A DNA stretch of 64,000 nt, taken from positions 2,177 to 66,176 of the forward strand of contig CAZFYQ010000002.1 of NCBI GenBank assembly GCA_964523905.1, read 5' to 3'. Origin of the DNA: an uncultured Gammaproteobacteria bacterium. GTDB taxonomy: Bacteria > Patescibacteriota > Microgenomatia > Daviesbacterales > UBA10151. The notes under the pieces were generated by a model. It worked only from the letters and a program-made list of their open reading frames with translations. It was not told where the DNA came from and did not search any database. Numbering within the stretch: the first letter of the stretch is position 1; the number at the start of each line of letters is the position of its first letter. Positions 8,725 to 41,357 of the stretch are shown piece after piece. The translations under genes and the position numbers were made by a program.

Positions 8725-10872
8725 TTAGACTGTTGCACATTCGTACACTTCTGTTATGGCAGCAGCATATAATCGTTGTAATTCTTCAGGGCTGATAGTT
8801 ATTGCTGGTGGAATTACAGAATAAAGATCAGCGTTATCTTTAAAAGCAATTTTAATTGGATCAGTAATTTCATCTCCTTTTTTGGAAGCTTGAACATAAG
8901 TCCACCATCCTGTTTCTGGTGTTCCACCTCTTCCTTCTTCAGCACGAAGCTGATTAGCTACACGTAGTCCGTATTGTCTTTCAGCATCAGTCATATCTGG
9001 GAATCCTGCTTTTCTAAATAATTGGTCGGCTTTAGTAGAATAACCTTTGAAGATTGGTTTGCCGTCAACCCATTTATAAGGATGCTTAAACCACCGCATA
9101 CCCTCACCTCTATAAAGTGTTTGTTTATGGAGTGTATCAACTTGTTTTTTACCATCTACCAGTTCGTCTTTCAGTTCTCCTTCTTCTGTGCAGAGAACTT
9201 TTTTAAGGTTGGTTAGGATTAATAGTTCTAACCAAATTTGATCCTGTAGACTGGAGAATCTTTTAACATCTCCACCTGGAATAATTTTGTAACCTCGATC
9301 AAGGGTAATATTGTATGTCTGTTTATCAAGAGCTAGGCTAACATGAGTTTCACCTGTTTGTCTGTCAAATTTGAAGGTAGCATTTTGGTAACCCCTCTTC
9401 CTGGTATTAGGATCAAAAGAAATCCGATAACCTCTTTCACCTAAAGATCTTGTATAAATAGTCTGGATTTGTCTCCTTGCTTCCTGGGTTTTTCTAGAAA
9501 TCTCATCAAATTGCTCAGTAGAAATTACTGGCCTATGATACTCAATAATAGATGGTAATCTTCCAAGCTCTTCTTCTGTATGGGTAGGGAATACAGCAAA
9601 TACTATACTTTTACCAGCATCAAAGAAATCAAACAGACCATTTCTTAATACTGCTTCTGATAAAACTCTTTCCATCGGTACATAGAGTTTTCGCATGGGA
9701 TTGCTGGATTGTCCAGTTAATATAGCTTCTTTAACCTCATCAATAATCCAATTTCTTTGTTCTGCTGAATGGACACGTTGTGCCATTACAACCAGAGATA
9801 AATCATCATTAAGCTGAATAGGATGTTGCGTTTGTATTTCATACCCTTCTTCCTGAAGATCAATTATCTTGTTTTCCCATTTAGCCCTAAAAGCGGGATC
9901 CCCAAATTTATCTAAAACTAGTGTTCTGAGTGGTTCATTAGGGTCTCTTATAACATTATGAGGCCAATCATTGACATTGTGGGTAAGTTCATATCTATCT
10001 CTTCTTTCAGCTGTTTCCAAGAAAGTTCCTGCTGAACCAGGTAATTCCTGAACTAAATACCCCTGTTCTGTATAAACCTCAAATAAAGGTTCGGCTCTGG
10101 ATCCTAGTATAGCTCTTTGATTACCCACTAACTCATCTAATAGTCTTGATTGCACAGGAGGTAAATACCCGCCAGCCACAAATAACCGTAACATATTAGA
10201 TTTTGAACGTTCAGTGAGGGTTCCCACATAATCCATGGCAGTTAGTATAGAATGGAATCTTCCTAAATGTTTATCATCTGTAGCAAAAAATCCTGCTGTG
10301 AAATAAATAGCTGTTGGGGATGTTGCTGCAAGCCAGTCTTTTCTAAAACTTAAAATAGAAAAAAGCTCTCTTTGAACAGTTAAGTTTGAGGTATCTACCA
10401 TTGCCCAAGCAGTGTTGTATAAAAGGTCTATCGCATGATTTACTGATCTAGGGCTAGAAAATAAAGCAGCCTCTATTTTTTCAATATCCTGACCTTGTCT
10501 ACTATCCGAACCAGCAATACGAGTCATAGCCAAATTTAATATTTTCCCAGGGCCCCACATATTTAAATCTAAATTTCGGGCTAAAGCATTAGTTGTATTT
10601 CCAATAATAGCCTCTTTTGCCTCATCTGGTCTTAGATCAGTTCTTACAATGCTAACTACTCCTAAATTGTGAAGAAGTGGTCTTAGTGTTAATGGGTTAT
10701 CAAATATTTGCTGCGTAACTGAATCTAAAATTACTTGTTTTTCTGATGGCTGAGCAGTATGAAGCTCTTCCACGACATTAATAGTATCTTCCATTAATAT
10801 TGCTGGTGGTTGCATGGCCTCAAAATCACTAAGTTGGTTTCTGTCAGGTTCTAACATCAGAAAATTATACAC
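8725..10872 (-). CDS. Hypothetical large protein (715 aa), island operon member
   Basis: Long ORF with no recognisable motif, at the distal end of the minus-strand operon with the helicase-methylase fusion. Its composition differs from the flanking core genes. Confidence 0.6.
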   Translation of the reverse strand: MYNFLMLEPDRNQLSDFEAMQPPAILMEDTINVVEELHTAQPSEKQVILDSVTQQIFDNPLTLRPLLHNLGVVSIVRTDLRPDEAKEAIIGNTTNALARNLDLNMWGPGKILNLAMTRIAGSDSRQGQDIEKIEAALFSSPRSVNHAIDLLYNTAWAMVDTSNLTVQRELFSILSFRKDWLAATSPTAIYFTAGFFATDDKHLGRFHSILTAMDYVGTLTERSKSNMLRLFVAGGYLPPVQSRLLDELVGNQRAILGSRAEPLFEVYTEQGYLVQELPGSAGTFLETAERRDRYELTHNVNDWPHNVIRDPNEPLRTLVLDKFGDPAFRAKWENKIIDLQEEGYEIQTQHPIQLNDDLSLVVMAQRVHSAEQRNWIIDEVKEAILTGQSSNPMRKLYVPMERVLSEAVLRNGLFDFFDAGKSIVFAVFPTHTEEELGRLPSIIEYHRPVISTEQFDEISRKTQEARRQIQTIYTRSLGERGYRISFDPNTRKRGYQNATFKFDRQTGETHVSLALDKQTYNITLDRGYKIIPGGDVKRFSSLQDQIWLELLILTNLKKVLCTEEGELKDELVDGKKQVDTLHKQTLYRGEGMRWFKHPYKWVDGKPIFKGYSTKADQLFRKAGFPDMTDAERQYGLRVANQLRAEEGRGGTPETGWWTYVQASKKGDEITDPIKIAFKDNADLYSVIPPAITISPEELQRLYAAAITEVYECATV

Positions 10873-10892
10873 TATGGGACTAGAAGAATCAA

Positions 10893-11489
10893 CTATGAGA
10901 CTTTAGCAGCTGGCGGTTTTAATAATTCTTCGTATAGTCTTTGCAGTTCATTATCGTCATATTTATGTCCAGCAATGGTTAACAAAAATGCTTGTCTTCC
11001 CTGGAATTCAAAAGGAGATAGTTGACCAGTAGCTTTGTGATGTAATTGAGCCAATACTGCAACCTTGCTGGCAGAAACCTCTGCCTCATCTCCGTATAAG
11101 GGATTTCCTTGATGGTCAACACGTCGAAGCGAAGAGATCATAATATTTTCTGGCCCTTGTGTCTTTACAAATGTTAAAATAATTCCCCGGGAGTTATAAC
11201 AAATAATTTCTCCAGCCTCTAACGCGCCAATTTCTCTACCTCTTGACCCTCCAAACCTGCTCATAGTTTCATCAGCAGTAAAAATCACAGCTTCCTGAAT
11301 ATCAAAAGCCTGCATCCCAACGGTAGTTTCTAATCCTAGAATTTTCGCTTGACCATCATGTAGAGTAGGTTTAACTTTTTCTTTAGTTGGAATATGCGTA
11401 TACCAGTGAGCTGCCAAATCAGGGGCTACGAGTTGTCCTGGTCTATCAAAAAACCTTATTCTTTCAGCATTCATTTCTTCAACATTCAT
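10893..11489 (-). CDS. Hypothetical protein (198 aa), translationally coupled to upstream helicase-methylase gene
   Basis: Its start overlaps the stop of the upstream ORF (ATGA, 11486-11489). Confidence 0.55.
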   Translation of the reverse strand: MNVEEMNAERIRFFDRPGQLVAPDLAAHWYTHIPTKEKVKPTLHDGQAKILGLETTVGMQAFDIQEAVIFTADETMSRFGGSRGREIGALEAGEIICYNSRGIILTFVKTQGPENIMISSLRRVDHQGNPLYGDEAEVSASKVAVLAQLHHKATGQLSPFEFQGRQAFLLTIAGHKYDDNELQRLYEELLKPPAAKVS

Positions 11490-14338
11490 ATTTTTCCTTC
11501 CTGTATGTCGATCAGAATACTTCTTAATTCTCCAAACAAATGTGCAGAATTACTCTGTTCGTTTTCATTATTCCAGTACTGTATAGCCTTAAATGATAAC
11601 TCTTCAGCCATTTTCCAATCTAGAGCCCATCTTCGAATAGCCTCCCTAGTTAAACGCCTAAAAGTACCATATTCTTCCACGCCTAGATATTGCAACATTT
11701 TACTAGTTTCAGTAGAAACTTTTTCACCCTTTGCTAAATCTCTTTCTAATTTATCTTCTTTTGGCGTTGAACCAAAATTAACTATTTCCTCATCACCATT
11801 ATCAGGCGATACAATAATAAACTCCCGATGAGGAACAGGTGGGGCAGTAGTTATGATTCCTTCACCAGAACCGTTTTTATTATTGCCTAATATAACATAA
11901 TCTGCATCAGAGTCAAGTGTAAGAGGGATAGAGTCATAACTATTGCCGATTTGTGCGTCTTTAAATTTTTCTAAATTTAAGATCCAACTAATTGGTTCTC
12001 TCTTAAAATCAGTTGCCCAAACTTCTCCTGATGGGATATTTGACGTTGGCCTAAAACCAAAATCTGCTAGGGCTTTAATCCAAGCGTTAAACTGCTCACC
12101 TGTCATATAATTATGAGGAAGAGTAATACTTATTTTTCCACCTAATTTAAGAGTTCGATTTAGTTCTTTAAAAATTCTGGCTCTTTCAGAAAGCAAAACA
12201 CCCGCCTTATCATATCTAGGAGTATTATTGCTCCAGTGAATTACCAGGGAAAGATCCATGATATCAATGCTATTTGCTAAAATAGGCAAGTGAGCGGCTT
12301 CTCCGGTTACATATTGACCTTCTGTACGTTCTCTGGCCTTGGCTACTTGTAAAACTTCCTGCATCATATCTATATTGATGATTTTTTCTCCTAGCATGAT
12401 TTGTAATATACCCGCGCCTGCACCAACACTGGCAATTTTTACATCCCCACCTGTTTCTTCTTTAAATCTGTTAATTACTTGTGAAACCACTCGGGCATTA
12501 TGGCCAGCAAGACTATATTCATCATCTTTGGAATAATAAGTTGCAAAAAAATCTGCATTAGACATACCTTCAAATCCTATTTGTCTTAAAAACTGCCTAT
12601 TTTTTTCATATCCTTGAGCTCTAGTACCAGGAAAGAATTTATTAATCAAATACATTCTAGGGGTCATTGGGTAAAGACTTTGTATAACTACGCCTCGGCT
12701 ATGTGCCTTAACAAAGATTTCTTCCTCTTCTGTCAAGGGAATTCCATCTAAAACCATCTGTGAAATTAATTTCTTATATTCCAAGGCTTGGGCAATACCT
12801 TCATCAATAAAACCATAATGGGTATTGGTTGGTTCATCAGGATGAGTGGCGCGAAGAGTAATGGCTCTTACAGGAATAGTTTGTCCAGTGTTTTCATTAC
12901 GCCCCCAAGTTTGTTTTTTATCGGCATATGTATCTGGCTCATCGATATGAAATTGAATAACTTCCTCAAATTGGGCATTGGCGGCAATTGGAGGAATACT
13001 CAAGTCAATCCCTAACCTACTTGAACGCATTGTTAAAAGACTAATTAAATTTGTTGGATCAAACCTAATAGTACGAATGGCTCTTTCTCTTTCAGAAATC
13101 TCGCCTCTTCTAGGATGAGCGGAAACATTTCCATCAATTCTGGGAATGTTTTCTCCATACCAGGTTCTCAAATAATCATATAGAGAAAAAAAGGCACTAA
13201 GATCGTCTTCAAATACTGTTTCTTCCAAAGGTGAAGTGACTGAACTGGCATAAAAAGCTGAGAAAATTTCAACTTTACTTTTTCCAGCAGTTACTAGCTT
13301 ATCGAGTCTTTTCTTGAGATGAATATACTTACTGGAGTAAAGGCCTTCTTTACCTGTCCAATGCTCCTGTAAGGATCTATCAGGGGATGATTTGACTAAA
13401 GAGTCCATGCCATTGGGAAAGTTGAAAAAAGCCCAAATAGCTAAATTATCGAAACCGATTCTTACTAGGAAATCTTCATCAAAAATTTCAGCAGGGTTTT
13501 GATTTAATTTCCATTGTATAAATTGTTTTGTTGCTTCTGATAAATCTTTTTGAGCATCATCAATAGTATATAAGCCACTAATATTGGTAGATCTTGCTTC
13601 AAGTCCTTTAATTTGATTTTCAATTTTTGCTCTGGTTTTATCATCCATGCTATCTGTTTCTAGTCTACCTTTAAGTTTTGACATCATTTGGGCAACACCA
13701 TCAGGGGAATAGAATTTTCTAATTAACATCGGATCTAATGAAAGTTGCCTTAATATTTGTCTTTTAGTGATACCTTCAGGTAAGTTATCGTGATATACAA
13801 AATCATATAATGCCTTATGAAATAATGTTAACGGAACAGGTTCTACTCTTATGTCAAGTTCTGGCAATTTATCTCTAAGAATTGAATACTTATTCCATCT
13901 AGTTAGAATTCCTCTGCCATGAAGTAAACCGGAAACTAAATATGGATCATTTCTGGCAGCTCTAGTGAAATCACCCTCTTTGGGATAATCATAAGGCAAT
14001 ATAATTCTAACCGGTGAATCTAAGTCTTCTACACCATTTACTACTGCTGTGGCAGTCATAGCAATTCTAGGAGCTTCTTTTGGTAGCATTCGAGAGATAA
14101 AATGCATTAATTTAGTACAAGTAGCATCGTAATTATTTGCTAGATGAGACTCGTCATCTACTAACGAATCTACATCGGCTTTTTTAACTAGTTCACTGAG
14201 TAGTTTAAAAGAACTGTCCTTGATTCCTAAAGTACTTAATAATGAATATCCTATGATTACATACCTGGGTTTATTATCCTTGGGGGTATTTACAAATTTT
14301 TTTAAATCAGCAGTACCGACAATGGTTATAACCTCCAC
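11486..14338 (-). CDS. SNF2-family helicase (motifs Ia-VI) fused to class I SAM-dependent methyltransferase; C-terminal 950-aa portion of a frameshifted gene
   Basis: DESH (motif II) and TATAV (motif III), a helicase-C region (SSRLGIDL, QTWGR..GQ), then a SAM-binding motif VGAGAG. The reading frame continues upstream of the GTG start as ..KKHTLVVCPPGKT.. (SNF2 motif Ia) until it meets the upstream ORF. Confidence 0.75.
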   Translation of the reverse strand: MEVITIVGTADLKKFVNTPKDNKPRYVIIGYSLLSTLGIKDSSFKLLSELVKKADVDSLVDDESHLANNYDATCTKLMHFISRMLPKEAPRIAMTATAVVNGVEDLDSPVRIILPYDYPKEGDFTRAARNDPYLVSGLLHGRGILTRWNKYSILRDKLPELDIRVEPVPLTLFHKALYDFVYHDNLPEGITKRQILRQLSLDPMLIRKFYSPDGVAQMMSKLKGRLETDSMDDKTRAKIENQIKGLEARSTNISGLYTIDDAQKDLSEATKQFIQWKLNQNPAEIFDEDFLVRIGFDNLAIWAFFNFPNGMDSLVKSSPDRSLQEHWTGKEGLYSSKYIHLKKRLDKLVTAGKSKVEIFSAFYASSVTSPLEETVFEDDLSAFFSLYDYLRTWYGENIPRIDGNVSAHPRRGEISERERAIRTIRFDPTNLISLLTMRSSRLGIDLSIPPIAANAQFEEVIQFHIDEPDTYADKKQTWGRNENTGQTIPVRAITLRATHPDEPTNTHYGFIDEGIAQALEYKKLISQMVLDGIPLTEEEEIFVKAHSRGVVIQSLYPMTPRMYLINKFFPGTRAQGYEKNRQFLRQIGFEGMSNADFFATYYSKDDEYSLAGHNARVVSQVINRFKEETGGDVKIASVGAGAGILQIMLGEKIINIDMMQEVLQVAKARERTEGQYVTGEAAHLPILANSIDIMDLSLVIHWSNNTPRYDKAGVLLSERARIFKELNRTLKLGGKISITLPHNYMTGEQFNAWIKALADFGFRPTSNIPSGEVWATDFKREPISWILNLEKFKDAQIGNSYDSIPLTLDSDADYVILGNNKNGSGEGIITTAPPVPHREFIIVSPDNGDEEIVNFGSTPKEDKLERDLAKGEKVSTETSKMLQYLGVEEYGTFRRLTREAIRRWALDWKMAEELSFKAIQYWNNENEQSNSAHLFGELRSILIDIQEGKI

Positions 14339-14406
14339 TGATTCTTCATATGCTTCACGAACCTCGGCTGCCCAGTCGTAGACTGTTTTTCCTGGAGGGC
14401 AAACTA

Positions 14407-15378
14407 CTAGAGTATGTTTTTTGCCCCGGCTTTTTCCATTGCATATATAGCACCTTTTGTTTTCTGGGTTTTTGTATCTCCAATTAACAAATCCGTCATG
14501 CCGATCCCACTAGTTTTATGGGTAAATCTGTAGGCATATTCTTTTTGATGCCTGGAAGGGAAAGGAAAAGAAGCTGTTCTCTCGTCTTCGGGAATATCTT
14601 TTTGAGCTCCGGCAATAATTCTTCTAAAAACTACAGGCACTTCATCTTCTTCAATATTTCTAAAATGCCTTTCCAAATTTTCCACAAATTGCAGCTGAAC
14701 TGGATTTTGAACTTCGGTTTTTAGATGATTAAGATAAGCAAAACATTTATCAACATCTTGATTATAAATTTCCAAAACTGCATCTCTTTCAGCTTGAGTT
14801 AAAATATCTAGTACTAAACCATCTTCAAAAAGTTCTTCTGGTAACTCTGGTAGAGGAAGAAGTTTTGGTCCTTCCGCCTCTCTTTTATAGAATCTTCTGG
14901 GTCCTAAATATTCACCAACTAATCTATATGTTCCGCTGATTAGAGTTTGTTTTGTTTGTTCATCAGCATCTCTGTAACGTCTGATACCGACTATTCTTGC
15001 CATTTGCAATTGAGTTACATACGGGCTTAGCTTTTCTATTAGGTCATCCTCTTGAGTTAGTAGATCTTTGGCCCGCTCATACCTTTGGAACTCGTCCATT
15101 TCCTGCTCTTCTCTTAGCTTATAACCTTTTCCAGTACACCAAATCCTGAATTGATTTAAAGCGTCAGGATTCCCTATAAAGTTGATAATATTAAATACTT
15201 CCTGTGGCCTAACTTCAAAATTTGCGACACTACGACAGGCAGTGAATCCTACTTGTTCTTCAGGTATAAATTCAAACAACTGAGTCATTTTTGCCCTGGT
15301 AATTTCCTGACCATTAGACTCTCGACCAATTGGGGTAGGGTCCTCCCTATAAGATATAATTCTTGGCTGTCTTTCCAT
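14407..15378 (-). CDS. N-terminal 323-aa portion of the SNF2 helicase-methyltransferase gene (ends 3 codons after an A AAA AAC tract)
   Basis: Ends with a degenerate SNF2 motif-I-like segment GIGMTDLLIGDTKTQKT. The downstream ORF continues the helicase in the -1 frame. Confidence 0.65.
   Translation of the reverse strand: MERQPRIISYREDPTPIGRESNGQEITRAKMTQLFEFIPEEQVGFTACRSVANFEVRPQEVFNIINFIGNPDALNQFRIWCTGKGYKLREEQEMDEFQRYERAKDLLTQEDDLIEKLSPYVTQLQMARIVGIRRYRDADEQTKQTLISGTYRLVGEYLGPRRFYKREAEGPKLLPLPELPEELFEDGLVLDILTQAERDAVLEIYNQDVDKCFAYLNHLKTEVQNPVQLQFVENLERHFRNIEEDEVPVVFRRIIAGAQKDIPEDERTASFPFPSRHQKEYAYRFTHKTSGIGMTDLLIGDTKTQKTKGAIYAMEKAGAKNIL
14416..14423 (-). other. A6 homopolymer / A_AAA_AAC heptamer at the junction of the two helicase ORFs (candidate -1 frameshift site or indel)
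   Basis: The minus strand reads gca aaa aac ata ctc tag. Shifting -1 at AAAAAAC joins ..EKAGAK to KHTLVVCPPGKT.. with no intervening stop. Confidence 0.5.
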
Positions 15379-15444
15379 TTTGCAGATTTTACCATAAATA
15401 AGCTTATAGTTTCAATACCTAATGCTATTTTCATAAAATCATAT

Positions 15445-15473
15445 TTGACAGAAATGATAAGCATATGTTACAC
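15445..15473 (+). promoter_or_regulatory. Sigma70-like promoter (TTGACA-17-TTACAC) for divergent island gene
   Basis: A perfect -35 and a plausible -10 lie just upstream of the ATG at 15475/15487. Confidence 0.4.
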
Positions 15474-15474
15474 T

Positions 15475-17529
15475 ATGGGACCGAATATGAGTATTGATAG
15501 ACTTAATGAAGATTTGGCCAGATGGAATCAAAGTATTGATGTTGTTAGTAACAGATCAAAACTTTTTGGTACCGTAGAAGGCCCTGAACAATATAGATAT
15601 GATTTAGCCACATCCCCTGTGGAAAAATTAGGACGCGTTAAAGAGGTTATGCGGGTGAGGACAATAATTTCAGAGGTTAGTCTTCCTAGACTCAGAGAAA
15701 AGGTTGAGGATATTCAAGTTAAAATTGAACATGAAGAGTTTAAAATAAATGTAAGAAATGGGATTATGGCAGAATTTGGCATTGAGGAATTAGAAAGAGC
15801 GCATCAAGCTGGAACATTGACTGATTTTGATTTACAAGTAGTTTCAGATGCAATGGAACAGGAAATAAGAATTCGATCAGGAGAAGCTCCCCCAATAGTG
15901 AATCCCATTTTAGAAAAACCAAAGACAGAACAAGCTCCTAACCCAGCTAGAGTAGATAATGAGAAAATATTTAGCGTCACATTTCCTAATGGAAATACTG
16001 CTGAGGTTACAGATGAAAGAGATTCAAAAATACTAGGAATCCTTTCCCAAGCAATGGATGGTATGCAAAACGGCGCTATAGATATTCCACAGGATGTAAT
16101 TGTCCGGGGAGTTTTTAATAGATTTGAAGTAGGTTTAGCAGAAGACATCAGAGATAGACTCGCAGTACATGCGCAAACAGTCGATTCAGTAGGATATCAA
16201 ATTGACAGAATTGACCGAATGCCTTCAGAGCAGCATGATCGAAGATTAAGACATATCTATAGAGTTCAAGAGAAGAAACCACAATCTCCTACTGAGCGGC
16301 ATCCTTCCCCTGGAGCTAATCCAGCAGAACCAGATAAAGCTGCAAGAAGAAGTGAAGAGGAAACTCTTTCTGAATCGGAGAAAGTATTAAAGGCATTAGA
16401 TCTTTTATTAGCTGATGAAAATATAGAAGCAGCTAGAGTTGTAGATCTAATGACAGAAAGATTAGAGAAAAATTTAGGAGTTGAAGGGGTAAATCTCCTA
16501 AATACAGTAAGTTATTTAATAAAAGAATTAAATGATATTTTTGATTGCTTAAATACAGATAGAATATATCAGCCTCAGCTGGCTCTATGGGAAAGAATTC
16601 GTATTTCGTCTGGACAAAGTGAAGATTTTCTGGCTAAAAAATTCTTTGAGACAAGAGTTAAAAACTGGTATAACAGAATGGTCAATGAAGATGGTAAATC
16701 CGCTTCAGTTACTGCAACAAAAGAAGGGGAGTTATTGATAAAAAGAGCAAGGGTATATGGTGCATTTCCATTTGTTTTAAGTAATGGTGGAACATACATT
16801 GCCAAAGGTGGTGTTGCGAAAAACTTAATGGAAGTATTAATCATGAATGAAGGGCAAGGACTTACTGCAGAAATATTAGGAATGTTAGCGTACGGTGTCG
16901 GTAAAAATGAGGCTGAGAAAAGATATAATACTAAATCTGCACGGTCAGCTGCGAATAATCTTAGACTTGATCCAGAATTAGCAGAAGTTGGCTATGAGGT
17001 TGTATCCATATTGCCCGAGGGTAGACAAAGGAGTCCGGATACTAAATTCATGCTCAGGCCGATTCCAGGTGTAGCACCAGAGGCTCATAAATCAACAAAA
17101 ACTGTTATTCTAGCTGGAGCTCCAGCATTAACAAGTCCTGAGCCTGAAGGTGCAGATGTAGATGTGCCACAACGAAAAGAATCCGCTAATAAAAATCAAT
17201 TAGAGGCGGAGCTAATTCAAGTAATCGCAGAGTTTGATCTTGTAAATCAGCCTGAATTTTTGAATGGTGCGCAAGTTACTAGGGTGGTGCATAATCTAAC
17301 CGCTCAAATGCAACGTAAATTAGTTGATGAAGGTAAATATCTTCAGCCTCACCATACTGAGGGTAAACTTTGGTTTTTTACATCCAAGCAGATAGCTCAG
17401 ATGGTTTTAATCATAGATCGTATGCGAAGTGGAGGAGTTAGAAAAGATTTCCTGAAGGATTTATTTGAAGTTACTGACCGTGCATATAGTAAAGCAGAAA
17501 TAGCCGCCATTATTATGGCAAAATCCTAA
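15475..17529 (+). CDS. Hypothetical acidic protein (~685 aa), divergent from helicase-methylase operon
   Basis: The ORF-track start at 15253 overlaps the opposite-strand gene. The internal ATG at 15475 or 15487 follows the promoter. No motif recognised. Confidence 0.55.
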   Translation: MGPNMSIDRLNEDLARWNQSIDVVSNRSKLFGTVEGPEQYRYDLATSPVEKLGRVKEVMRVRTIISEVSLPRLREKVEDIQVKIEHEEFKINVRNGIMAEFGIEELERAHQAGTLTDFDLQVVSDAMEQEIRIRSGEAPPIVNPILEKPKTEQAPNPARVDNEKIFSVTFPNGNTAEVTDERDSKILGILSQAMDGMQNGAIDIPQDVIVRGVFNRFEVGLAEDIRDRLAVHAQTVDSVGYQIDRIDRMPSEQHDRRLRHIYRVQEKKPQSPTERHPSPGANPAEPDKAARRSEEETLSESEKVLKALDLLLADENIEAARVVDLMTERLEKNLGVEGVNLLNTVSYLIKELNDIFDCLNTDRIYQPQLALWERIRISSGQSEDFLAKKFFETRVKNWYNRMVNEDGKSASVTATKEGELLIKRARVYGAFPFVLSNGGTYIAKGGVAKNLMEVLIMNEGQGLTAEILGMLAYGVGKNEAEKRYNTKSARSAANNLRLDPELAEVGYEVVSILPEGRQRSPDTKFMLRPIPGVAPEAHKSTKTVILAGAPALTSPEPEGADVDVPQRKESANKNQLEAELIQVIAEFDLVNQPEFLNGAQVTRVVHNLTAQMQRKLVDEGKYLQPHHTEGKLWFFTSKQIAQMVLIIDRMRSGGVRKDFLKDLFEVTDRAYSKAEIAAIIMAKS

Positions 17530-17891
17530 AAATATCTTTCCCCGGTTTTGTTGGTAAGTTGGGAAACGACATCAATGCCTTTGGCGAAATCGGATAGCAG
17601 TTTTTTCTTGGCAGCGGTTAAGGAAACTGCCATTCTATTTAATTTTACCCCTTCCGGGTGAGTGGAGGAGACTTTCATTAAGGTAGCTGCCATTTGGTCT
17701 AACTGGTGGACTAAATGATCCAAGGCATTGGAGATGGCCGAAATTTGTCCGGCTTTGTCCAGACTTTGGAAAAAGGAATTTTTAAACAGTCTGCCAACCT
17801 GGCCATATTGAACCAGCTTTTCAAAGCGCTGAGTAGGATTTAACCCTTTTTCCCATTCTTCTAATTTTTCCTCTATTGGATCTAAGTTCAT
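17526..17891 (-). CDS. Hypothetical protein (121 aa)
   Basis: An ORF convergent with the 15475 gene, overlapping it by 4 nt. Confidence 0.45.
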   Translation of the reverse strand: MNLDPIEEKLEEWEKGLNPTQRFEKLVQYGQVGRLFKNSFFQSLDKAGQISAISNALDHLVHQLDQMAATLMKVSSTHPEGVKLNRMAVSLTAAKKKLLSDFAKGIDVVSQLTNKTGERYF

Positions 17892-17982
17892 AAGGGAATT
17901 ATAGCAAAAAAGTGAGGGGGTAATGGGTAAGGAAGCCAGGGTGGTTAGGAGGTAAGGAAGTTAGTATAGTATAGTAGGGAGG

Positions 17983-18378
17983 TTAGGGAGTAGGTCTTTT
18001 GAAAGTAGTCCAGGCCATTGATAGTTTATATAATTGCCTGCCTGTCTGGTCATACATTTTAATTAACTCATTTATTAATTCGACTTCTATCTCATAAATA
18101 TCTTTAATTTGTTCAAGGCTAACAATAGTTTCATTACATTCTCCCATGGCATCATCAATATATTTTTGAAACCCCATTTTTTGATGTCTCTTAGCATAAC
18201 CTTCTGCAATTAGTCTGGGAATAGCTTTACATGATCTACTGGTCTGATCTTTTAAGTCGTATTTTTCAGAATCCGGAAGTTTAGGAATGATTCTTTTCAT
18301 CACCTGGAGCATGCATTGGTATGAATTTTGGTAAACTTGTAAATCTCTAAAGCTGGTAATTGGTTTTTTGTTTTCCAC
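17983..18378 (-). CDS. Four-helix-bundle protein (TIGR02436 family; Avd-like / 23S rRNA IVS protein family)
   Basis: N-terminal ITSFRDLQVYQ...EKYDL.DQ..RS..AIP..IAEGY matches the four-helix-bundle family signature. Confidence 0.7.
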   Translation of the reverse strand: MENKKPITSFRDLQVYQNSYQCMLQVMKRIIPKLPDSEKYDLKDQTSRSCKAIPRLIAEGYAKRHQKMGFQKYIDDAMGECNETIVSLEQIKDIYEIEVELINELIKMYDQTGRQLYKLSMAWTTFKRPTP

Positions 18379-18433
18379 ACCTTACCCCTTTACTCTAAAC
18401 TATACTGGTTTCTTAACCCAATAACCACTAACT

Positions 18434-18462
18434 TTACCATCAGAAAGCTGCAGTAGTATAAT
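18434..18462 (+). promoter_or_regulatory. Sigma70-like promoter (TTACCA-17-TATAAT)
   Basis: Consensus -10 with a 17-nt spacer, upstream of a small ORF that has a strong SD. Confidence 0.5.
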
Positions 18463-18498
18463 AATTTCATGATTCGGAAAGTTAAGGAAGGTTACAGA

Positions 18499-18603
18499 GT
18501 GGTGGCGGAATCCGGGCGGAATATGGGGACTTATCCTACTAAAGAGCAAGCTGAAAAAAGATTAAAACAAATCCAAATGTTTAAGCACATGCGTAAGGGT
18601 TAA
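18499..18603 (+). CDS. Candidate small ORF (34 codons, GTG start) MVAESGRNMGTYPTKEQAEKRLKQIQMFKHMRKG
   Basis: SD AAGGAAGG lies 7 nt upstream of a GTG, with the promoter above it. It falls below the ORF-track size cutoff. Confidence 0.35.
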   Translation: MVAESGRNMGTYPTKEQAEKRLKQIQMFKHMRKG

Positions 18604-18669
18604 GACTACTTGTTATCCTCTTGGCCAGAACTCTTGACTTTCGGGTAAATTATGGGGTAAGGTAAATAT

Positions 18670-19497
18670 ATGGGTAAAAGCAAGAAAATTGTTGTTAAAG
18701 GCATAACAGTTACGGTAATACCTAATCAAACAAATGACTACATTTCCCTAACCGATATGTTAAAAGCCAAAGATGGAGACTTTTTTATCTCTGATTGGCT
18801 AAGAAATAGAAATACTGTAGAGTTTCTTGGTATTTGGGAAAGAGTTAACAATCCAAATTTTAATTACGGCGAATTTGCCATAATTAAAAGTCAGGCCGGA
18901 TTAAATAGCTATAAATTAAGTGTTAAAGAATGGGTAGAAAAAACTAAAGCCATTGGGTTAAGGGCTACCGCTGGTAAATACGGTGGAACATATGCTCATA
19001 AAGATATTGCCTTTGAATTTGGAATGTGGATTAGTCCTGAATTCAAGATTTATTTAATTAAAGAATTCCAAAGATTAAAAGAAGAAGAGAATGAACGATT
19101 GCGACTGGGTTGGGATTTAAAGCGAACTTTGGCGAAAGTTAATTATAAAATTCATACGGATGCAATTAAAGAACATTTAATTCCCAAGAAAATTAATAAA
19201 GAAGCAGAAACAATTATTTATGCCAGTGAGGCAGATGTTTTAAATGTAGCTTTATTCGGAATGACAGCTAAAAACTGGCGTGATGAAAATCCAAAGCAGG
19301 AGGGTAATGTAAGAGATTACGCTTCAATTGAACAGCTGATAGTTTTGACAAATCTAGAAGGAATAAATGCTGAATTTATCAGACAGGGCTTATCACAAGG
19401 TGAAAGACTAATAAAACTTAATGAAATTGCCATTTTCCAAATAAAATCTCTTCTTAATAATCCTACTATGAAAAAGTTAATTCAAAAAAGAAAATAA
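18670..19497 (+). CDS. KilA-N domain protein
   Basis: The N-terminal ~130 aa match the KilA-N domain (YISLTDMLKA, AGKYGGTYAHKDIAFEFGMWISPEF) found in phage and mobile-element proteins. Confidence 0.8.
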   Translation: MGKSKKIVVKGITVTVIPNQTNDYISLTDMLKAKDGDFFISDWLRNRNTVEFLGIWERVNNPNFNYGEFAIIKSQAGLNSYKLSVKEWVEKTKAIGLRATAGKYGGTYAHKDIAFEFGMWISPEFKIYLIKEFQRLKEEENERLRLGWDLKRTLAKVNYKIHTDAIKEHLIPKKINKEAETIIYASEADVLNVALFGMTAKNWRDENPKQEGNVRDYASIEQLIVLTNLEGINAEFIRQGLSQGERLIKLNEIAIFQIKSLLNNPTMKKLIQKRK

Positions 19498-19500
19498 CTC

Positions 19501-19526
19501 ATGTCCACATTGTATTTTCCCAAAAA
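19501..19526 (+). repeat. 26-bp direct repeat copy 1 (atgkccacattgtattttcccaaaaa)
   Basis: 25/26 identical to 20241-20266, and duplicates the first 8 codons of the DUF4258 gene. Confidence 0.8.
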
Positions 19527-19610
19527 CCCACCTAATTCTATTTTTAATTTCAAGCTTTTTTCTTACTTTTTTCTAAATAGATGTTGACAGTTAGTTGATA
19601 AAGTTTAACA

Positions 19611-19868
19611 ATGAAAGTATACTTTGTACCCATGCCAAAAGCTTTAAAAAAATATATTTCTCGAGATAAAGACATTCTGGGTGGAACACCTGTAATTTCT
19701 GGTACCAGAATCCCTATAGAACGAATCTATGAACTTATAAAACAAGGTGAGCCTTTGGAAAAACTGCAAGCTGATTACTCATGGGTAGATAAAAAGAAAA
19801 TTCAATTTGTAATTGCATATTTAATGGAAGCTGGACTTAATGAGTACAAGAAAGTCCAAAAAATATAA
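19611..19868 (+). CDS. DUF433 domain protein (antitoxin-like)
   Basis: ILGGTPVISGTRIPIERI matches the DUF433 core, and it overlaps the downstream DUF5615 gene. Confidence 0.75.
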   Translation: MKVYFVPMPKALKKYISRDKDILGGTPVISGTRIPIERIYELIKQGEPLEKLQADYSWVDKKKIQFVIAYLMEAGLNEYKKVQKI

Positions 19869-20229
19869 GTTGCTCCTTGATGAAGGGCTGCATCTGCCCA
19901 AGTCTTATCCGAAAACAAATCAATATTACGATTTAAAACATATTTCTCAGACTAAATTTAGAGCTAAACCGGATGCGGATATCTACCAATTGGCTGATAA
20001 TGAAAAAAGATTCCCGGTGGTATTTAACACAAAGGATTTCAAGCCCCTTATCTCAAAAAACAGAATGTCAGTCATTGCATTATCAACAAACTTAACAGAT
20101 AAGGAAGCTGATCTTAAAATATCAAAATCCTTAAGAGAATTATCTACTATGCAGGAAAAGGGATGTCTAATATCAATTAGTAAGACAGGAATTACGATCA
20201 AACTTTCTCAAAATACAGTGGAGAATTAA
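19840..20229 (+). CDS. DUF5615 (Mut7-C-like RNase fold) protein, toxin-like partner of DUF433
   Basis: N-terminal KLLLDEGLHLP and a C-terminal NTKDF motif. The DUF433-DUF5615 gene pair is widely conserved. Confidence 0.65.
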   Translation: MSTRKSKKYKLLLDEGLHLPKSYPKTNQYYDLKHISQTKFRAKPDADIYQLADNEKRFPVVFNTKDFKPLISKNRMSVIALSTNLTDKEADLKISKSLRELSTMQEKGCLISISKTGITIKLSQNTVEN

Positions 20230-20240
20230 AGATAACATAT

Positions 20241-20266
20241 ATGGCCACATTGTATTTTCCCAAAAA
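20241..20266 (+). repeat. 26-bp direct repeat copy 2
   Basis: See copy 1 at 19501-19526. Confidence 0.8.
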
Positions 20267-20477
20267 AACTAGAGAGGGGATGGTTAGAAAAGGCATTTCT
20301 GAAAGTGATATTGAAGATGTGTATGCCAGTGGGGAATACCATCAGGCAGGAGATTCGCATATGATGCTTAAAAGATATAAATCCCAAGGATTTGAAATTG
20401 GATTATATTATATTCCGGATGATCGCATTAGTGGCCGTAACGTAGTCATTGCCACTTGGAAAAGAAAAATTACCTAA
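20241..20477 (+). CDS. DUF4258-like small protein (toxin-like)
   Basis: 78 aa with an ..MVRKGISESDIEDV.. / ..VVIATWKR pattern typical of DUF4258. Its first 26 nt are duplicated at 19501. Confidence 0.5.
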   Translation: MATLYFPKKTREGMVRKGISESDIEDVYASGEYHQAGDSHMMLKRYKSQGFEIGLYYIPDDRISGRNVVIATWKRKIT

Positions 20478-20735
20478 TTAGCGATATTTTTTAGGTGTTA
20501 TTTTGAAAGGATTAGAGTACCCTTTTTTGCCAGTGAAGGGGTTTACATTTCCTTTCGTTGAAAAATTATCAAACTTGGTTTTATTTGGTGATGTTTTAAA
20601 ATGCGGTGTAACATAAGTACCTTTTTTTGTTGTATAGCCTCTAACTCTTTGCAAAGCTTGAGCGTTAGAAACTGAAGTTAAAGAAAAAGATAAAACTATC
20701 AAAAAGGCAATTAAATTGAAAATAAGTTTTCTCAC
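20478..20735 (-). CDS. Small secreted basic protein (85 aa, signal peptide)
   Basis: N-terminal hydrophobic signal ending in an AQA motif, followed by a Lys/Gly-rich mature region. Confidence 0.5.
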   Translation of the reverse strand: MRKLIFNLIAFLIVLSFSLTSVSNAQALQRVRGYTTKKGTYVTPHFKTSPNKTKFDNFSTKGNVNPFTGKKGYSNPFKITPKKYR

Positions 20736-20777
20736 AACAGGATTATAGCATGTATAAAATTCTGATATAATTTCGCT

Positions 20778-22379
20778 GTGAACCTAAAAAATATTTTCAA
20801 ATCTTTTAAAACAGTAGAGAATAAAAATAAAGTGGAAAAAATAGTTAATATCCCTAAACCAAAAGTCCCTGAAGCTTTATCAGAAAGTCCGAAAAAACCA
20901 GTTTTGGCTGATACTTTAGCCCAAAATATCACAGGCAAAGGGACTGTTTGGAAGTATCCACCACTCTCTCTTTTATCAGATAAAGTTGGTCCTCCAGCGG
21001 ATAGAGGAGACGTTAGAAAATCTGCTTCCACTATAGAAAAGGCCTTTGATTCATTCGGCATACAAGCCAGAGTAGCTGAAGTAAATGGTGGTCCGTCTGT
21101 AACGCAGTATGCCCTAGAAGTGGCATCGGGAACAAATATAGCCAAACTTATTAATTTCCAACAGGATATTGCTATGGCTTTGGCGTCCAGTACTGGGACT
21201 GTAAGAATAGAAGCTCCAATTCCTGGAAAATCTTTAGTAGGTATTGAAGTTCCAAACAGATCGTTGGAAATTGTAGGATTAAAACAGATTTTAGCATCGG
21301 ATGAAATGAGTAGACATAAATCAAAGCTGGCGGTAGCACTAGGTAGAGATTCTGCTTCTAGACCAATCGTAATGGATATAGATAAAATGCCATATCTTTT
21401 AATTGCTGGTACATCAGGTTCAGGAAAATCAGTATGTATCCATAGCCTAGTTGCATCATTGCTCTTTAGAAATTCACCTGATGAACTAAAGTTAATTCTA
21501 GTTGATCCTTCAAGGGTAGAATTGGGATTATATAACAGTGTCCCCCATCTCCTAACCCCAGTTATTACTGAACCAGAAAAAGCGGTCAGTGCCTTAAAAT
21601 GGATTATGGCAGAAATGGATAGAAGATATAAATTATTTCAAAGCGTTGGAGTGAGAAATATACAAGGATACAGCGATATAAGTGGTTACCAAGCTTTACC
21701 ATACGTTGTAATTTTCATTGATGACCCCGGTCTGCTCATTCAATTTGCCCCAGTTGAAATCGAAGATGCGCTAGTTCGTATAACCCAAATGGGAAGAGCA
21801 GTGGGAATACATTTAGTGATGACTACTCAACGACCCTCGATAGATGTTATATCAGGTTTAATCAAGGCTAAAATTCCAGGAAGAATATCGTTTCTTCTCC
21901 CGAGTATAACCGATTCTATGGTCATTCTTGATCAACCTGGAGCAGAGAAACTATTGGGAAGAGGAGATATGTTATTTTATCCTCCAGATGCATCAAAGCC
22001 GATGAGGATCCAGGGAATTTTTGTACAAGATTCTGAAATAAGTAATTTAACCAAATACTTGAAAGAATTCAGTAGTGTTCCACAATATACTGCGGAAGTA
22101 ACAGAGATGCCGGTAGGGAAGTGGAATCAAAAAGGCGGGGATGGGGGAGACAGAGATCAATTATTTGAAGAAGCAGTTAGAACTATTTGTCAGTATGATC
22201 GGGCTTCAGCATCCTTACTGCAACGAAGACTTAAAGTTGGCTATGCCAGAGCCGCTAGAATTCTAGACGAGTTAGAAGTAGCCGGAATTGTTGGTCCGGG
22301 TGAAGGATCAACACAAAGAGACGTACTTGTGAAGGATTCTGAAGAGTTTCTAAAGGATTTTAGTAATAAATCTAGATAA
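20778..22379 (+). CDS. ftsK: FtsK/SpoIIIE-family DNA translocase (motor + gamma domain; no N-terminal membrane domain in this ORF)
   Basis: Walker A GTSGSGKS, an FtsK alpha/beta region, and a C-terminal winged-helix gamma domain (LLQRRLKVGYARAARILDELE). GTG start. Confidence 0.85.
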   Translation: MNLKNIFKSFKTVENKNKVEKIVNIPKPKVPEALSESPKKPVLADTLAQNITGKGTVWKYPPLSLLSDKVGPPADRGDVRKSASTIEKAFDSFGIQARVAEVNGGPSVTQYALEVASGTNIAKLINFQQDIAMALASSTGTVRIEAPIPGKSLVGIEVPNRSLEIVGLKQILASDEMSRHKSKLAVALGRDSASRPIVMDIDKMPYLLIAGTSGSGKSVCIHSLVASLLFRNSPDELKLILVDPSRVELGLYNSVPHLLTPVITEPEKAVSALKWIMAEMDRRYKLFQSVGVRNIQGYSDISGYQALPYVVIFIDDPGLLIQFAPVEIEDALVRITQMGRAVGIHLVMTTQRPSIDVISGLIKAKIPGRISFLLPSITDSMVILDQPGAEKLLGRGDMLFYPPDASKPMRIQGIFVQDSEISNLTKYLKEFSSVPQYTAEVTEMPVGKWNQKGGDGGDRDQLFEEAVRTICQYDRASASLLQRRLKVGYARAARILDELEVAGIVGPGEGSTQRDVLVKDSEEFLKDFSNKSR

Positions 22380-22408
22380 TCCTTCAAGATGGTTGTATGA
22401 TTAAATGA

Positions 22409-22660
22409 GTGAAAAGATTCTTAATAACTTTGGTTTTAAGTGTTTTGGTATGGCTATCAAGTGGAATTATTCAGCTTCTAGTTCAAAAGGATGTCGTTTC
22501 AGGATTCTTTTCGTTTGGTGGATCGTGTGAAATAACCGGTTATCCTATTGCACTGTGTATTTCCAGTCACGACAATTTAATGTTTATTGTCTTGAGTATA
22601 ATCAATATTGCCTTTTGGTTTTGGCTAATCCATTTTCTTGGAAGACGACTTGTTAAATAA
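22409..22660 (+). CDS. Small membrane protein (83 aa)
   Basis: Two hydrophobic segments. Confidence 0.4.
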   Translation: MKRFLITLVLSVLVWLSSGIIQLLVQKDVVSGFFSFGGSCEITGYPIALCISSHDNLMFIVLSIINIAFWFWLIHFLGRRLVK

Positions 22661-25591: not shown

Positions 25592-25642
25592 TTTAGGCTT
25601 ACATAATTACTGTACCACTTTAGAGGAAAATGTGGTATAAAA

Positions 25643-26353
25643 GTGGGGATGTTTACTAACCAGAAAGTGTTAGCTTTAATTTTAATAGTTTTCCTAATTG
25701 GAGCAGCCGGTTATTTTACAGTTTCCAAGTTTAAAGCAGATGTGTCTGATGCCGGAGTGTCACCAACTCCCACTCCCCCTGCTCTAAGTTTTACCTTTAG
25801 CGCTAATTCCCAAACTCCGGCACCTGGCCAAACCGGACAAGCAGGTCAAACTCAACCTGCTCAATCACTGCCTTTGGAACATAACAAACATTTGGATAAA
25901 TTCCCCGGACTACTAGCCCCGGATGTGTTAGCCAATAAATCCGCCTTAATTCAAACTAAAAAGGGTAATATTTCTTTGCAGATTTATCCAGAGGCCACCA
26001 AAGCTGCTTCTAATTTTTTGCTGCTAGCTGCTAATGGATTTTATGATGGATTAACGTTTCATCGGGTGGAGGATTGGGTGGTACAGGGTGGGGACCCTGA
26101 TGGTACAGGACGCGGTGGGCCAGGATATCAGTTTGAAGATGAGCCGGTGACCAGATCATACACACAAGGGATTGTGGCCATGGCTAATGCCGGACCCAAT
26201 ACCAATGGCTCACAGTTTTTTATTTTGAAAAAAGATTATCCGCTGCCACCTAACTATACTATCTTTGGCAACGTGGTTTCCGGTATGGATGTGGTGTCTC
26301 AAATCGCCGTAGGTGATGTGATGCAAAAGGTGACAATACAAAACCTTAAATAG
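25643..26353 (+). CDS. ppiB: Peptidyl-prolyl cis-trans isomerase, cyclophilin type, membrane-anchored
   Basis: An FHRV...GGDP.GTG.GGPGY...ANAGPNTNGSQFFI cyclophilin core, with an N-terminal TM helix. Confidence 0.85.
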   Translation: MGMFTNQKVLALILIVFLIGAAGYFTVSKFKADVSDAGVSPTPTPPALSFTFSANSQTPAPGQTGQAGQTQPAQSLPLEHNKHLDKFPGLLAPDVLANKSALIQTKKGNISLQIYPEATKAASNFLLLAANGFYDGLTFHRVEDWVVQGGDPDGTGRGGPGYQFEDEPVTRSYTQGIVAMANAGPNTNGSQFFILKKDYPLPPNYTIFGNVVSGMDVVSQIAVGDVMQKVTIQNLK

Positions 26354-26445: not shown

Positions 26446-26886
26446 GTGAAATGTCCTTTCTGTGCAAGCGATTTAAGCAAAGTAGTTGATAAAAGGTCAG
26501 TAACTGGACGGGGTGAAATCAGAAGACGAAGGCAGTGTCTTAAGTGTGATAAAAGATTTACCACGTATGAGTCTTTGGCTCAACTACAACTGGCGGTGCT
26601 AAAAAAAGACGGCACCAGACAGGCATTTGATGGGGAAAAGATTAGGAGAGGGTTAATTAGGGCTTTGGAAAAACGGCCGGGAATAGAAAAAGTGGGCACT
26701 ATTGTGGATCGGATTGAAGGTAGAATTAGGGCTAGAAGACTTAGTGAAATTGAGTCAGCCACTTTAGGAAAATGGGTGCTGTCAGAGCTGAAAAAATTGG
26801 ATGCGGTGGCATATCTTCGATATGTTAGTGTCTACCGATCTTTTGGAGACTTAAAAGACTTTAGTAAAGAATTAGAAACACTATGA
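26446..26886 (+). CDS. nrdR: Transcriptional repressor NrdR
   Basis: A zinc ribbon KCPFC...CLKC followed by an ATP-cone. GTG start chosen to give the canonical MKCPFC N-terminus; the ORF-track start is 26413. Confidence 0.85.
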   Translation: MKCPFCASDLSKVVDKRSVTGRGEIRRRRQCLKCDKRFTTYESLAQLQLAVLKKDGTRQAFDGEKIRRGLIRALEKRPGIEKVGTIVDRIEGRIRARRLSEIESATLGKWVLSELKKLDAVAYLRYVSVYRSFGDLKDFSKELETL

Positions 26887-41345: not shown

Positions 41346-41357
41346 GGTGATTTCAGT

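Follow-up and report, generated by a model that had tools for sequence, protein, structure and literature searches.

The window analysed here, a stretch of 64,000 nucleotides from contig CAZFYQ010000002.1 (assembly GCA_964523905.1), carries between positions 8725 and 17529 a three-gene operon on the minus strand and a gene that diverges from it. In the following these four genes are referred to as the module. The operon encodes a fusion of an SNF2-type ATPase with a class I S-adenosylmethionine (SAM) methyltransferase, a protein of 198 amino acids (aa) and a protein of 715 aa; the product of the divergent gene counts 685 aa. A preliminary description of this DNA had joined the module with the genes that follow it into a single atypical accessory island (8725-20480). 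We find that the module is instead an old chromosomal operon, and we tentatively read it as a DNA-surveillance system in which methylation is coupled to the flipping or excision of bases. The features of the module are listed here:

8725-10872, minus strand: 715-aa open reading frame (ORF), third gene of the conserved operon
10893-11489, minus strand: 198-aa ORF, second gene of the conserved operon
11486-15378, minus strand: fusion of SNF2-type ATPase and class I SAM methyltransferase, about 1297 aa if read through
11486-14338, minus strand: 950-aa ORF, the fusion from motif Ia onward (RecA2, methyltransferase and C-terminal domain)
14407-15378, minus strand: 323-aa ORF, N-terminal domain of the fusion plus Walker A
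15379-15471, no strand: divergent intergenic region between the helicase-methyltransferase gene and the 685-aa gene
15472-17529, plus strand: 685-aa ORF starting at ATG 15472 (the database call is 680 aa, from ATG 15487)

The 715-, 198- and 950-aa ORFs are placed as first described, and the same holds for the ATGA by which the start of the 198-aa gene overlaps the stop of the 950-aa fusion ORF. Both domains of the fusion are recovered by Pfam on the joined product, but the single intact ORF that had been supposed is interrupted by a frameshift, which leaves the additional 323-aa ORF. The divergent gene is present with either of its two starts; its product, said to be acidic, is only mildly so (pI 5.5, like its neighbours). 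The hexamers of a promoter proposed in front of it can be seen on the plus strand of the intergenic region (TTGACA-18-TACACT, with the -10 element abutting the first ATG), and the minus strand holds TTGAAA-18-TAAAAT. Such sites are not enriched here, however: two are found against 1.8 expected in shuffled sequences.

Domains and folds of the module proteins

When the two pieces are joined into a product of 1297 aa, Pfam SNF2-rel_dom matches across the junction (residues 314-526, 30.3 bits with a cut-off of 24.9), a model that neither the 950-aa nor the 323-aa piece reaches alone. Methyltransf_11 is found on the same product with 38.9 bits (cut-off 21.2). Among the 29 members of the fusion family SNF2-rel_dom is present in 28 and Methyltransf_11 in 27, and Helicase_C is detected in only two. 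The SNF2 part conserves the Walker A lysine (K306), the DE pair at 409-410 and MTAT, as well as the motif V/VI residues L789, G790, Q823, R827, G832 and Q833; the SAM-binding GxGxG (G986, G988) and D1004 are invariant in the family. The overall layout is an N-terminal part of about 290 aa, the SNF2 core, the class I methyltransferase and a C-terminal part of about 200 aa, with no match for either terminal part. In profile searches against PDB the ATPase part comes nearest to SSO1653, Mot1 and ISWI (E about 1e-5) and the methyltransferase part to 3l8d, 1vl5, the peptide methyltransferase LahSB and YcgJ. The nearest NCBIfam models for the methyltransferase are BioC and UbiE, both far below cut-off. 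The protein thus falls in the SNF2 family of ATPases (PF00176) and in the class I SAM methyltransferases (Methyltransf_11) and outside the DNA amino-methyltransferases (N6A/N4C), so that the DNA methylase of the preliminary description is better called a Methyltransf_11/BioC/UbiE-like domain.

The frameshift, which had gone unmentioned before our follow-up analysis, lies at 14416-14424 on the minus strand. Here GC-A-AAA-AAC is followed by ATACTCTAG; the 0 frame ends at TAG (14407-14409), and the -1 frame goes on as HTLVVCPPGK. The 323-aa ORF terminates in ...LLIGDTKTQKTKGAIYAMEKAGAKNIL and a stop, while the -1 frame reads HTLVVCPPGKTVYDW... into the 950-aa ORF. The break sits between Walker A and motif Ia, within RecA lobe 1, and does not coincide with a domain boundary. 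Intact homologs of 1270-1320 aa exist, and none of the 28 recovered has a break at this position. Compared with the closest intact relative, locus L016 (...GGG ACT AAA ACC ACT TTG GTA GTT...), the window has two nucleotides more, and compared with an L015-like sequence (...GGNHTLVF...) it has one less. The in-phase A AAA AAC has the form of a canonical slippery heptamer, and a ribosome slipping by -1 there would produce ...AKNHTLVVCPP.... We rejected programmed -1 frameshifting as the preferred reading, given that there is no conservation in the 28 homologs and no downstream stimulatory structure (the 76 nt after the heptamer fold no better than shuffled sequences, z +0.25). We therefore take the break to be either a mutational frameshift or an error of the assembly. 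If real it would be recent, because the remainder of the gene and the partner genes are intact. With the break inside RecA lobe 1, the key gene seems to be disrupted and the system would be inactive in this genome, barring an assembly error or bypass through a -1 slip.

Interruptions are seen in other copies as well. At 8331-8338 of L028 (and in the same way in L029) the fusion gene consists of a 662-aa and a 643-aa ORF overlapping by ATGACTAA; the family alignment is continuous across their junction, and the split may reflect either a frameshift or a true two-gene arrangement. The fragments in L035 (helicase of 1072 and 254 aa, 198-family gene of 115 and 50 aa) had suggested decay of the module and were put down to scaffold gaps rather than pseudogenisation: the contig, with 10 Ns in its sequence, matches the intact L016 at 99.97% identity.

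For the 198-aa protein, structure modelling points to the fold shared by AAG (methylpurine DNA glycosylase) and FMT-C, a likeness that was also absent from the preliminary description. AAG is the best match of the model, scoring above the formyltransferases. The sequence profile of the glycosylases does not reach the family: none of 12 members has a Pfam match to Pur_DNA_glyco even at E <= 10, and hhalign of the family against AAG gives only two short collinear local matches (probabilities 0.5% and 1.4%). One of these sets FFDRPxxxVAxDL at the N-terminus of the family against FFxxPAVxVAxxL of AAG, and this N-terminal motif (FFxRPxxVAxDL) aligns specifically to the AAG family. The other sets SRG...PGEIICYxSRG against RNRG...PGTLYVYIIYG, the DNA-intercalating hairpin of AAG. 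A manual collinear alignment that extends these segments, and which is not a structural one, would pair AAG residue Y127 with F or Y70 of the family, Y159 with Y or F98, and the intercalating Y162 with R101 (H in other members) at the hairpin tip. Identity to human and bacterial AAG (MPG; Pur_DNA_glyco) amounts to 15%, and the catalytic IVETEAY motif of AAG stands against IEEVVLY in the family consensus. Invariant in the family are F14, G46, T75, R78, R83, F107, K109, N115 and G128. Taken as a prediction, the fold and the nucleic-acid-binding character of the protein are well supported.

The model of the 715-aa protein suggests an ARM/HEAT-like alpha-solenoid over residues 30 to 340 or so; the C-terminal alpha/beta domain matches no known fold. 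A word-indexed homolog search with this protein and with the concatenated 198+715 alignment returned P0030 only. A PD-(D/E)xK reading of its QDQAWLELLxLSHLKK motif was rejected, as the model puts the motif on a helix. Kinship of the 715 family with the 685-aa protein, or with the 869-aa, 878-aa and 782-aa proteins of L001, L007 and L012, was also rejected, since comparisons by hidden Markov model (HMM) and hhalign were all negative. An exhaustive HMMER search of 1.84 billion proteins with the 685-aa protein turned up four representatives. Its three relatives (L013, L014/L016, L015) all lie divergent from the helicase-methyltransferase gene, and the 869-aa gene that takes the same position in L001 gives a weak reciprocal match only (E 0.005). 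The gene for the 685-aa protein diverges from the operon, evolves fast and is lineage-specific. The large partner proteins had been described as unrecognised, and indeed none of the partners, the 685-aa protein included, has a family assignment in Pfam, NCBIfam, PHROGs or PADLOC.

Distribution, synteny and composition

Full-length relatives of the fusion (36-67% identity) form 29 protein clusters in 5.8 billion. A pattern scan of 185,579 species genomes yielded five loci, namely two in Daviesbacteria, one in Roizmanbacteria and two in metagenome-assembled genomes that carry the label "uncultured Gammaproteobacteria"; the same kind of scan over 241 million metagenome records yielded ten. After removal of duplicates 14 distinct loci are left, the window included. 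In every one of these a homolog of the 198-aa protein (186-210 aa) directly follows the fusion gene, and in 13 there are one to three genes of the 715 family (about 720 aa). The core of the operon thus encodes a fusion of roughly 1300 aa, a protein of about 190 aa and one of about 720 aa. In the Roizmanbacteria locus (L012/L025) an unrelated 782-aa gene replaces the third gene. Two 715-family paralogs are found in L008, and the Daviesbacteria locus L010 (7776-23135) has three around the fusion, one of them upstream.

The chromosomal position of the module is shared with several relatives. In L015/L020 the order Pyr_redox, MgtE, YkuD and S11 carboxypeptidase leads into the module exactly as in the window, after which come genes for 714 aa, 187 aa and a 1302-aa fusion (all minus strand) and 905 aa (plus strand). 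Between the window and L015, flanking housekeeping proteins are 63-67% identical, against 39-52% for the module proteins and 29% for the product of the divergent gene. The closest relatives are L016-19 (63% identity for the fusion, 58% for the 715 family), where the order is ribonucleotide reductase (RNR), NrdR, peptidyl-prolyl isomerase (PPIase), then genes for 698 aa, the 1316-aa fusion, 186 aa and 722 aa, and a convergent gene. In L021 the S11 carboxypeptidase gene is convergent and comes after the 715-family gene. In L013, L014 and L016 the 685-family gene is directly followed by the homolog of the PPIase gene at 25643-26353 of the window, then NrdR and RNR. Because the same position recurs in all these loci, we conclude that 8725-17529 has been at this site since the lineages diverged and was inherited with its neighbours over some 35% of housekeeping-protein divergence.

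Synteny is stable within this one clade, and the module occupies other sites in other clades: between rnc and rpsP-KH-trmD in L001 and L004, between ruvA and ruvC in L002, beside ychF-rpsF in L022 and beside bipA in L028. A recG gene lies four or five genes away in L001 and L004, and rusA adjoins the module in L021. Stand-alone Methyltransf_11/TehB-type methyltransferase genes adjoin it in L015 (12718-13497, 259 aa) and L002 (2012-2734, 240 aa). Just downstream of the module in L010 there are a relaxase-like Replic_Relax gene and a TraG/VirD4-like coupling-protein gene, a homolog of which lies upstream of the module in L012 (7348-16374). No relatives were found among the 2.9 million viral contigs of IMG/VR, and tblastn (E <= 1e-5) gave no match in 50,697 INPHARED phage or 72,556 PLSDB plasmid records. 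Pfam searches found no integrase in the region, in agreement with the preliminary description. The sole tRNA (at 41356) is 21 kb away, and no direct repeats were found to flank either the module or the hotspot described below. Overall, the module is a vertically retained, patchily distributed chromosomal operon of Microgenomates bacteria, which belong to the candidate phyla radiation (CPR).

The composition of 8725-20480, which had first drawn attention to the region, was ranked against 209 same-length segments of the window. The claim of a more AT-rich, atypical sequence is not borne out: the GC content is 36.5% against 38.4% in the rest of the window (rank 25 of 209), and the tetranucleotide distance is mid-range and no outlier. 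The depletion of CCGG, on the other hand, is real: the region has 17 sites where the median is 48, the lowest count among the 209 segments, and only eight sites fall in the module itself. Over the whole window CCGG is in excess by about 3.4-fold (281 sites or 4.4 per kb, where some 1.3 per kb would be expected at 38% GC); the module is merely at the level of expectation. The bias towards AGA is confirmed as well: AGA makes up 0.55-0.65 of the arginine codons in module genes against 0.14-0.5 in left-flank genes, and the GC content at third codon positions (GC3) is 0.23-0.26 against 0.31-0.38. The signature of low GC3 and low CCGG recurs in ftsK and at 41991-43286, 46246-47478 and 51635-56305. 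The module copies in L016 and L004 show a milder bias, with CCGG below that of their flanks, from which we conclude that the bias is a property of the module genes rather than a mark of recent arrival.

The adjoining variable hotspot

Between the 685-aa gene and the PPIase gene lies a segment (17530-25640) of window-specific DNA. The junction of these two genes is empty in L013, L014 and L016-19, holds two genes in L015 and ten in the window. The two genes in L015, which encode a methyltransferase of 259 aa and a protein of 691 aa, differ from those of the window, and the junction thus has the character of a variable hotspot, separate from the operon and independent of it. The following genes of the hotspot fall in the region first described:

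17983-18378, minus strand: 131-aa four-helix-bundle protein of the 23S rRNA intervening sequence (IVS) family (PF05635, 4.8e-21)
18670-19497, plus strand: 275-aa KilA-N protein (PF04383, 4.5e-25), the PADLOC candidate PDC-S22
19611-19868, plus strand: DUF433 gene (Pfam)
19840-20229, plus strand: DUF5615 gene (Pfam)
20241-20477: 78-aa gene, no Pfam match

The other genes are a 121-aa ORF, an 85-aa ORF, a 533-aa FtsK with alpha, beta and gamma domains and without the N-terminal membrane domain, an 83-aa ORF and a 988-aa LCAT/PGAP1-like (lipase-like) hydrolase. The ftsK gene shares the signature of low GC3 and high AGA. The KilA-N protein matches PDC-S22 with 3.4e-132 and phrog_2657 with 2.3e-59; its gene and the DUF433/DUF5615 pair had been recognised correctly, as Pfam confirms. 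The 131-aa protein, taken for Avd-like, does belong to a four-helix family (TIGR02436, 59.5 bits); the Avd part of the claim fails, the Avd model NF033474 giving 13.9 bits against a cut-off of 80, and no protein of the region has a Pfam match to a reverse transcriptase. The 78-aa gene had been called DUF4258, for which Pfam gives no support. Its 5' end is duplicated just past the stop codon of the KilA-N gene, and the resulting 26-nt direct repeat (96% identical, 19501-19526 and 20241-20266) brackets the DUF433/DUF5615 pair, which suggests that the pair was inserted as a cassette.

It follows that 8725-20480 is not a single island and that its boundaries match no unit of gain or loss. The expectation that related genomes would lack this segment holds for 17530-25640, which overlaps it only in part, and does not hold for 8725-17529, which is present and syntenic in relatives.

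Two ORFs further along the window are unusual in other respects. A 425-aa ORF at 47479-48756 (minus strand) reaches 51.7% GC where the window averages 38%; it contains a single arginine codon, and the region around it is strongly GC-skewed. An rRNA beneath it was ruled out, as there is no Rfam match. Right after nrdR, at 26883-30641 (plus strand), the ORF in the position of ribonucleotide reductase is unusually long (1252 aa), possibly owing to an insertion or an intein.

Relation to known systems and possible function

No known defence system matches the module above the level of single domains. It falls under none of DISARM, DarB, MADS and canonical restriction-modification (R-M), just as the 131-aa protein of the hotspot does not fall under Avd, and literature searches gave no description of this gene combination. 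DISARM likewise pairs an SNF2-family ATPase with a methyltransferase, and the SNF2 domains of 17 of the 29 fusion-family members weakly match its DrmD models (best 1e-9). In the module, however, a single polypeptide carries both motor and methyltransferase, the latter being of the Methyltransf_11 type rather than N6A or C5, and the partners are an AAG-fold protein (as modelled) and a solenoid protein. The NCBIfam model DrmD_b gives 14.7 bits against a cut-off of 950, PADLOC and Pfam detect no DrmA, DrmB (DUF1998) or DrmC among the window proteins, and no DUF1998 occurs in the genes called beside the module in related loci. Phage P1 DarB-type proteins also combine a helicase-like ATPase and a methyltransferase in a single polypeptide, and the 950-aa ORF weakly matches phrog_62 "DNA helicase" (2.4e-8 over 120 residues), but here the fusion gene is chromosomal and syntenic and the class of methyltransferase differs. 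The DarB- or DISARM-like affinity put forward earlier accordingly finds no support. The mad2 model of PADLOC is matched by the methyltransferase domains of 15 of the 29 members (best 5e-8); Mad2 is the self-marking DNA methyltransferase of MADS (bioRxiv 10.1101/2023.03.30.534895). This match takes in no more than the SAM-binding core, at positions 292-417 of a profile of 492; for the window copy E is only 0.003, and none of the other mad genes is present. The likenesses to DrmD, ZorD, DpdE (the latter two also weakly matched by the SNF2 part at the family level) and Mad2 are domain-level resemblance only.

Closer in concept are systems in which a glycosylase fold discriminates DNA by base modification: R.PabI-type base-excision restriction, where a glycosylase is paired with a methyltransferase (PMC10273834), the defence glycosylase Brig1 of base-excision immunity (PMC11078745) and the defence glycosylases Dag1/2 (bioRxiv 10.1101/2025.10.29.685425). 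These have another fold than the AAG/FMT-C-like one predicted here and consist of one or two genes, none of which encodes a motor protein; moreover, in the 198-aa protein, a putative glycosylase, the canonical catalytic Glu is not evident. AAG, alkyladenine and methyladenine go unmentioned in the 2025 survey.

We tentatively favour, as a possibility well short of an even chance, that the module is an undescribed methylation-coupled base-flipping or base-excision DNA-surveillance system resembling R-M. Its parts would act together on DNA: the SNF2-type motor would track along the double strand, as family membership suggests, the fused class I SAM methyltransferase would mark bases, and the 198-aa protein with its modelled AAG fold would flip purines and read or excise them depending on how they are methylated. 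The solenoid protein of 715 aa, which occurs as one to three paralogs, may serve as scaffold or target selector, and the divergent 685-aa product may be a lineage-specific accessory or regulator. We favour this reading because of the linkage and translational coupling of the genes, the conserved motif residues of motor and methyltransferase, the weak matches of the latter to Mad2, an evolution of the defence type (rarity, faster change than in the flanks, 715-family paralogs, the split form in L028, genes of the conjugation type beside the module in L010 and L012) and the precedents of base-excision immunity. A more specific version, CPR-confined and improbable as it stands, is write-then-excise immunity. 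The SNF2-methyltransferase would deposit ring-nitrogen methylpurines (of the m3A or m7G type) on invading DNA selected by the solenoid protein, and the AAG-fold partner would turn these marks into abasic sites without a classical nuclease. The converse arrangement, which we include in the same estimate, would have the methyl mark shield self DNA from a purine-excising, AAG-like restriction glycosylase.

A number of observations weigh against a surveillance system of this kind. In none of the four proteins did the searches reveal a nuclease domain or an effector domain of another kind. The methyltransferase falls in the small-molecule/peptide-type Methyltransf_11 class, its family alignment lacks the (D/N/S)PP(Y/F) motif and shows no recognisable target-recognition domain, and in most family members the Walker A glycine that precedes the lysine is M, Q or R. 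In the tentative manual alignment of the 198-aa protein the catalytic E125 of AAG would pair with the hydrophobic V68, and E123 with E66, which is kept in only 10 of 12 members. Finally, the neighbours of the module are mostly housekeeping rather than defence genes and differ between lineages, and the recombination genes near it in four loci (ruvA/ruvC, recG twice, rusA) would fit repair equally well.

A role in DNA repair or genome maintenance is the rival that has to be taken most seriously, even if we consider it rather unlikely. An SNF2 motor of the Mfd/RapA/CSB/Rad5 type would here bring an AAG-like glycosylase to alkylated purines, with the methyltransferase-like domain sensing SAM or acting as a regulator and the solenoid protein as scaffold. 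AAG, the best match of the 198-aa model, is after all a family of base-excision repair, and the stable synteny among housekeeping genes, the recombination genes just mentioned and the lack of a nuclease or toxin-like effector all suit such a role. Nevertheless, a module present in five of 185,579 species genomes plus ten metagenome loci is too rare for a core function, it evolves faster than its flanks, its third gene has expanded into paralogs and been replaced in one lineage, and its invariant SAM-binding motifs point to a catalytic methyltransferase. It might also be argued that the complex modifies RNA or helps in ribosome or tRNA maturation, the 198-aa protein binding tRNA or rRNA in an FMT-C-like manner while Methyltransf_11 methylates RNA and the ATPase remodels RNA or ribonucleoprotein. 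We regard this as a long shot: SNF2 ATPases are double-stranded DNA translocases, AAG outscores the formyltransferases and the N-terminal motif aligns specifically to AAG, and rarity, fast evolution and the varying neighbours speak against a role in translation.

The least probable of the explanations considered, and a very improbable one, is a recently acquired mobile island with a phage- or plasmid-type anti-restriction gene or a DISARM-like helicase-methylase. Codon usage and CCGG content unlike those of the left flank might indicate this, as might the adjoining toxin-antitoxin, KilA-N and IVS-type genes, the relaxase-like and coupling-protein genes in L010 and L012, and the weak matches to DrmD, ZorD and DpdE. 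Yet the module keeps its flanking genes in L015/L020, L016-19 and L021, integrase, flanking tRNA and flanking repeats are lacking in the region, and the viral, phage and plasmid sets hold no relatives; the DrmD score is far below cut-off, the DISARM core genes are absent, and the milder CCGG bias in L016 and L004 removes the mark of recent arrival. Of the undescribed defence, anti-defence or mobile module once proposed, an uncharacterised candidate system remains and the recently acquired island does not. What probability the surveillance reading and its three rivals leave over goes to something else.

Summarizing, the module is a reasonable candidate for a new variant among the DNA-surveillance systems that combine a motor with a methyltransferase, in a gene combination that is itself undescribed. 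Its very narrow distribution, the uncultivated hosts and a putative function limit the weight it can bear. The case also shows that a composition judged by eye (CCGG, AGA) flagged an old syntenic segment, while the segment that was truly gained or lost adjoins it. Ideas on the defence biology of CPR bacteria derive in large part from their canonical R-M and CRISPR genes. If the surveillance reading is true, an AAG-fold base-flipping protein together with a motor-fused, non-canonical methyltransferase would join the mechanisms of self/non-self discrimination, and CPR bacteria would gain one of the very few candidate systems that are specific to them.

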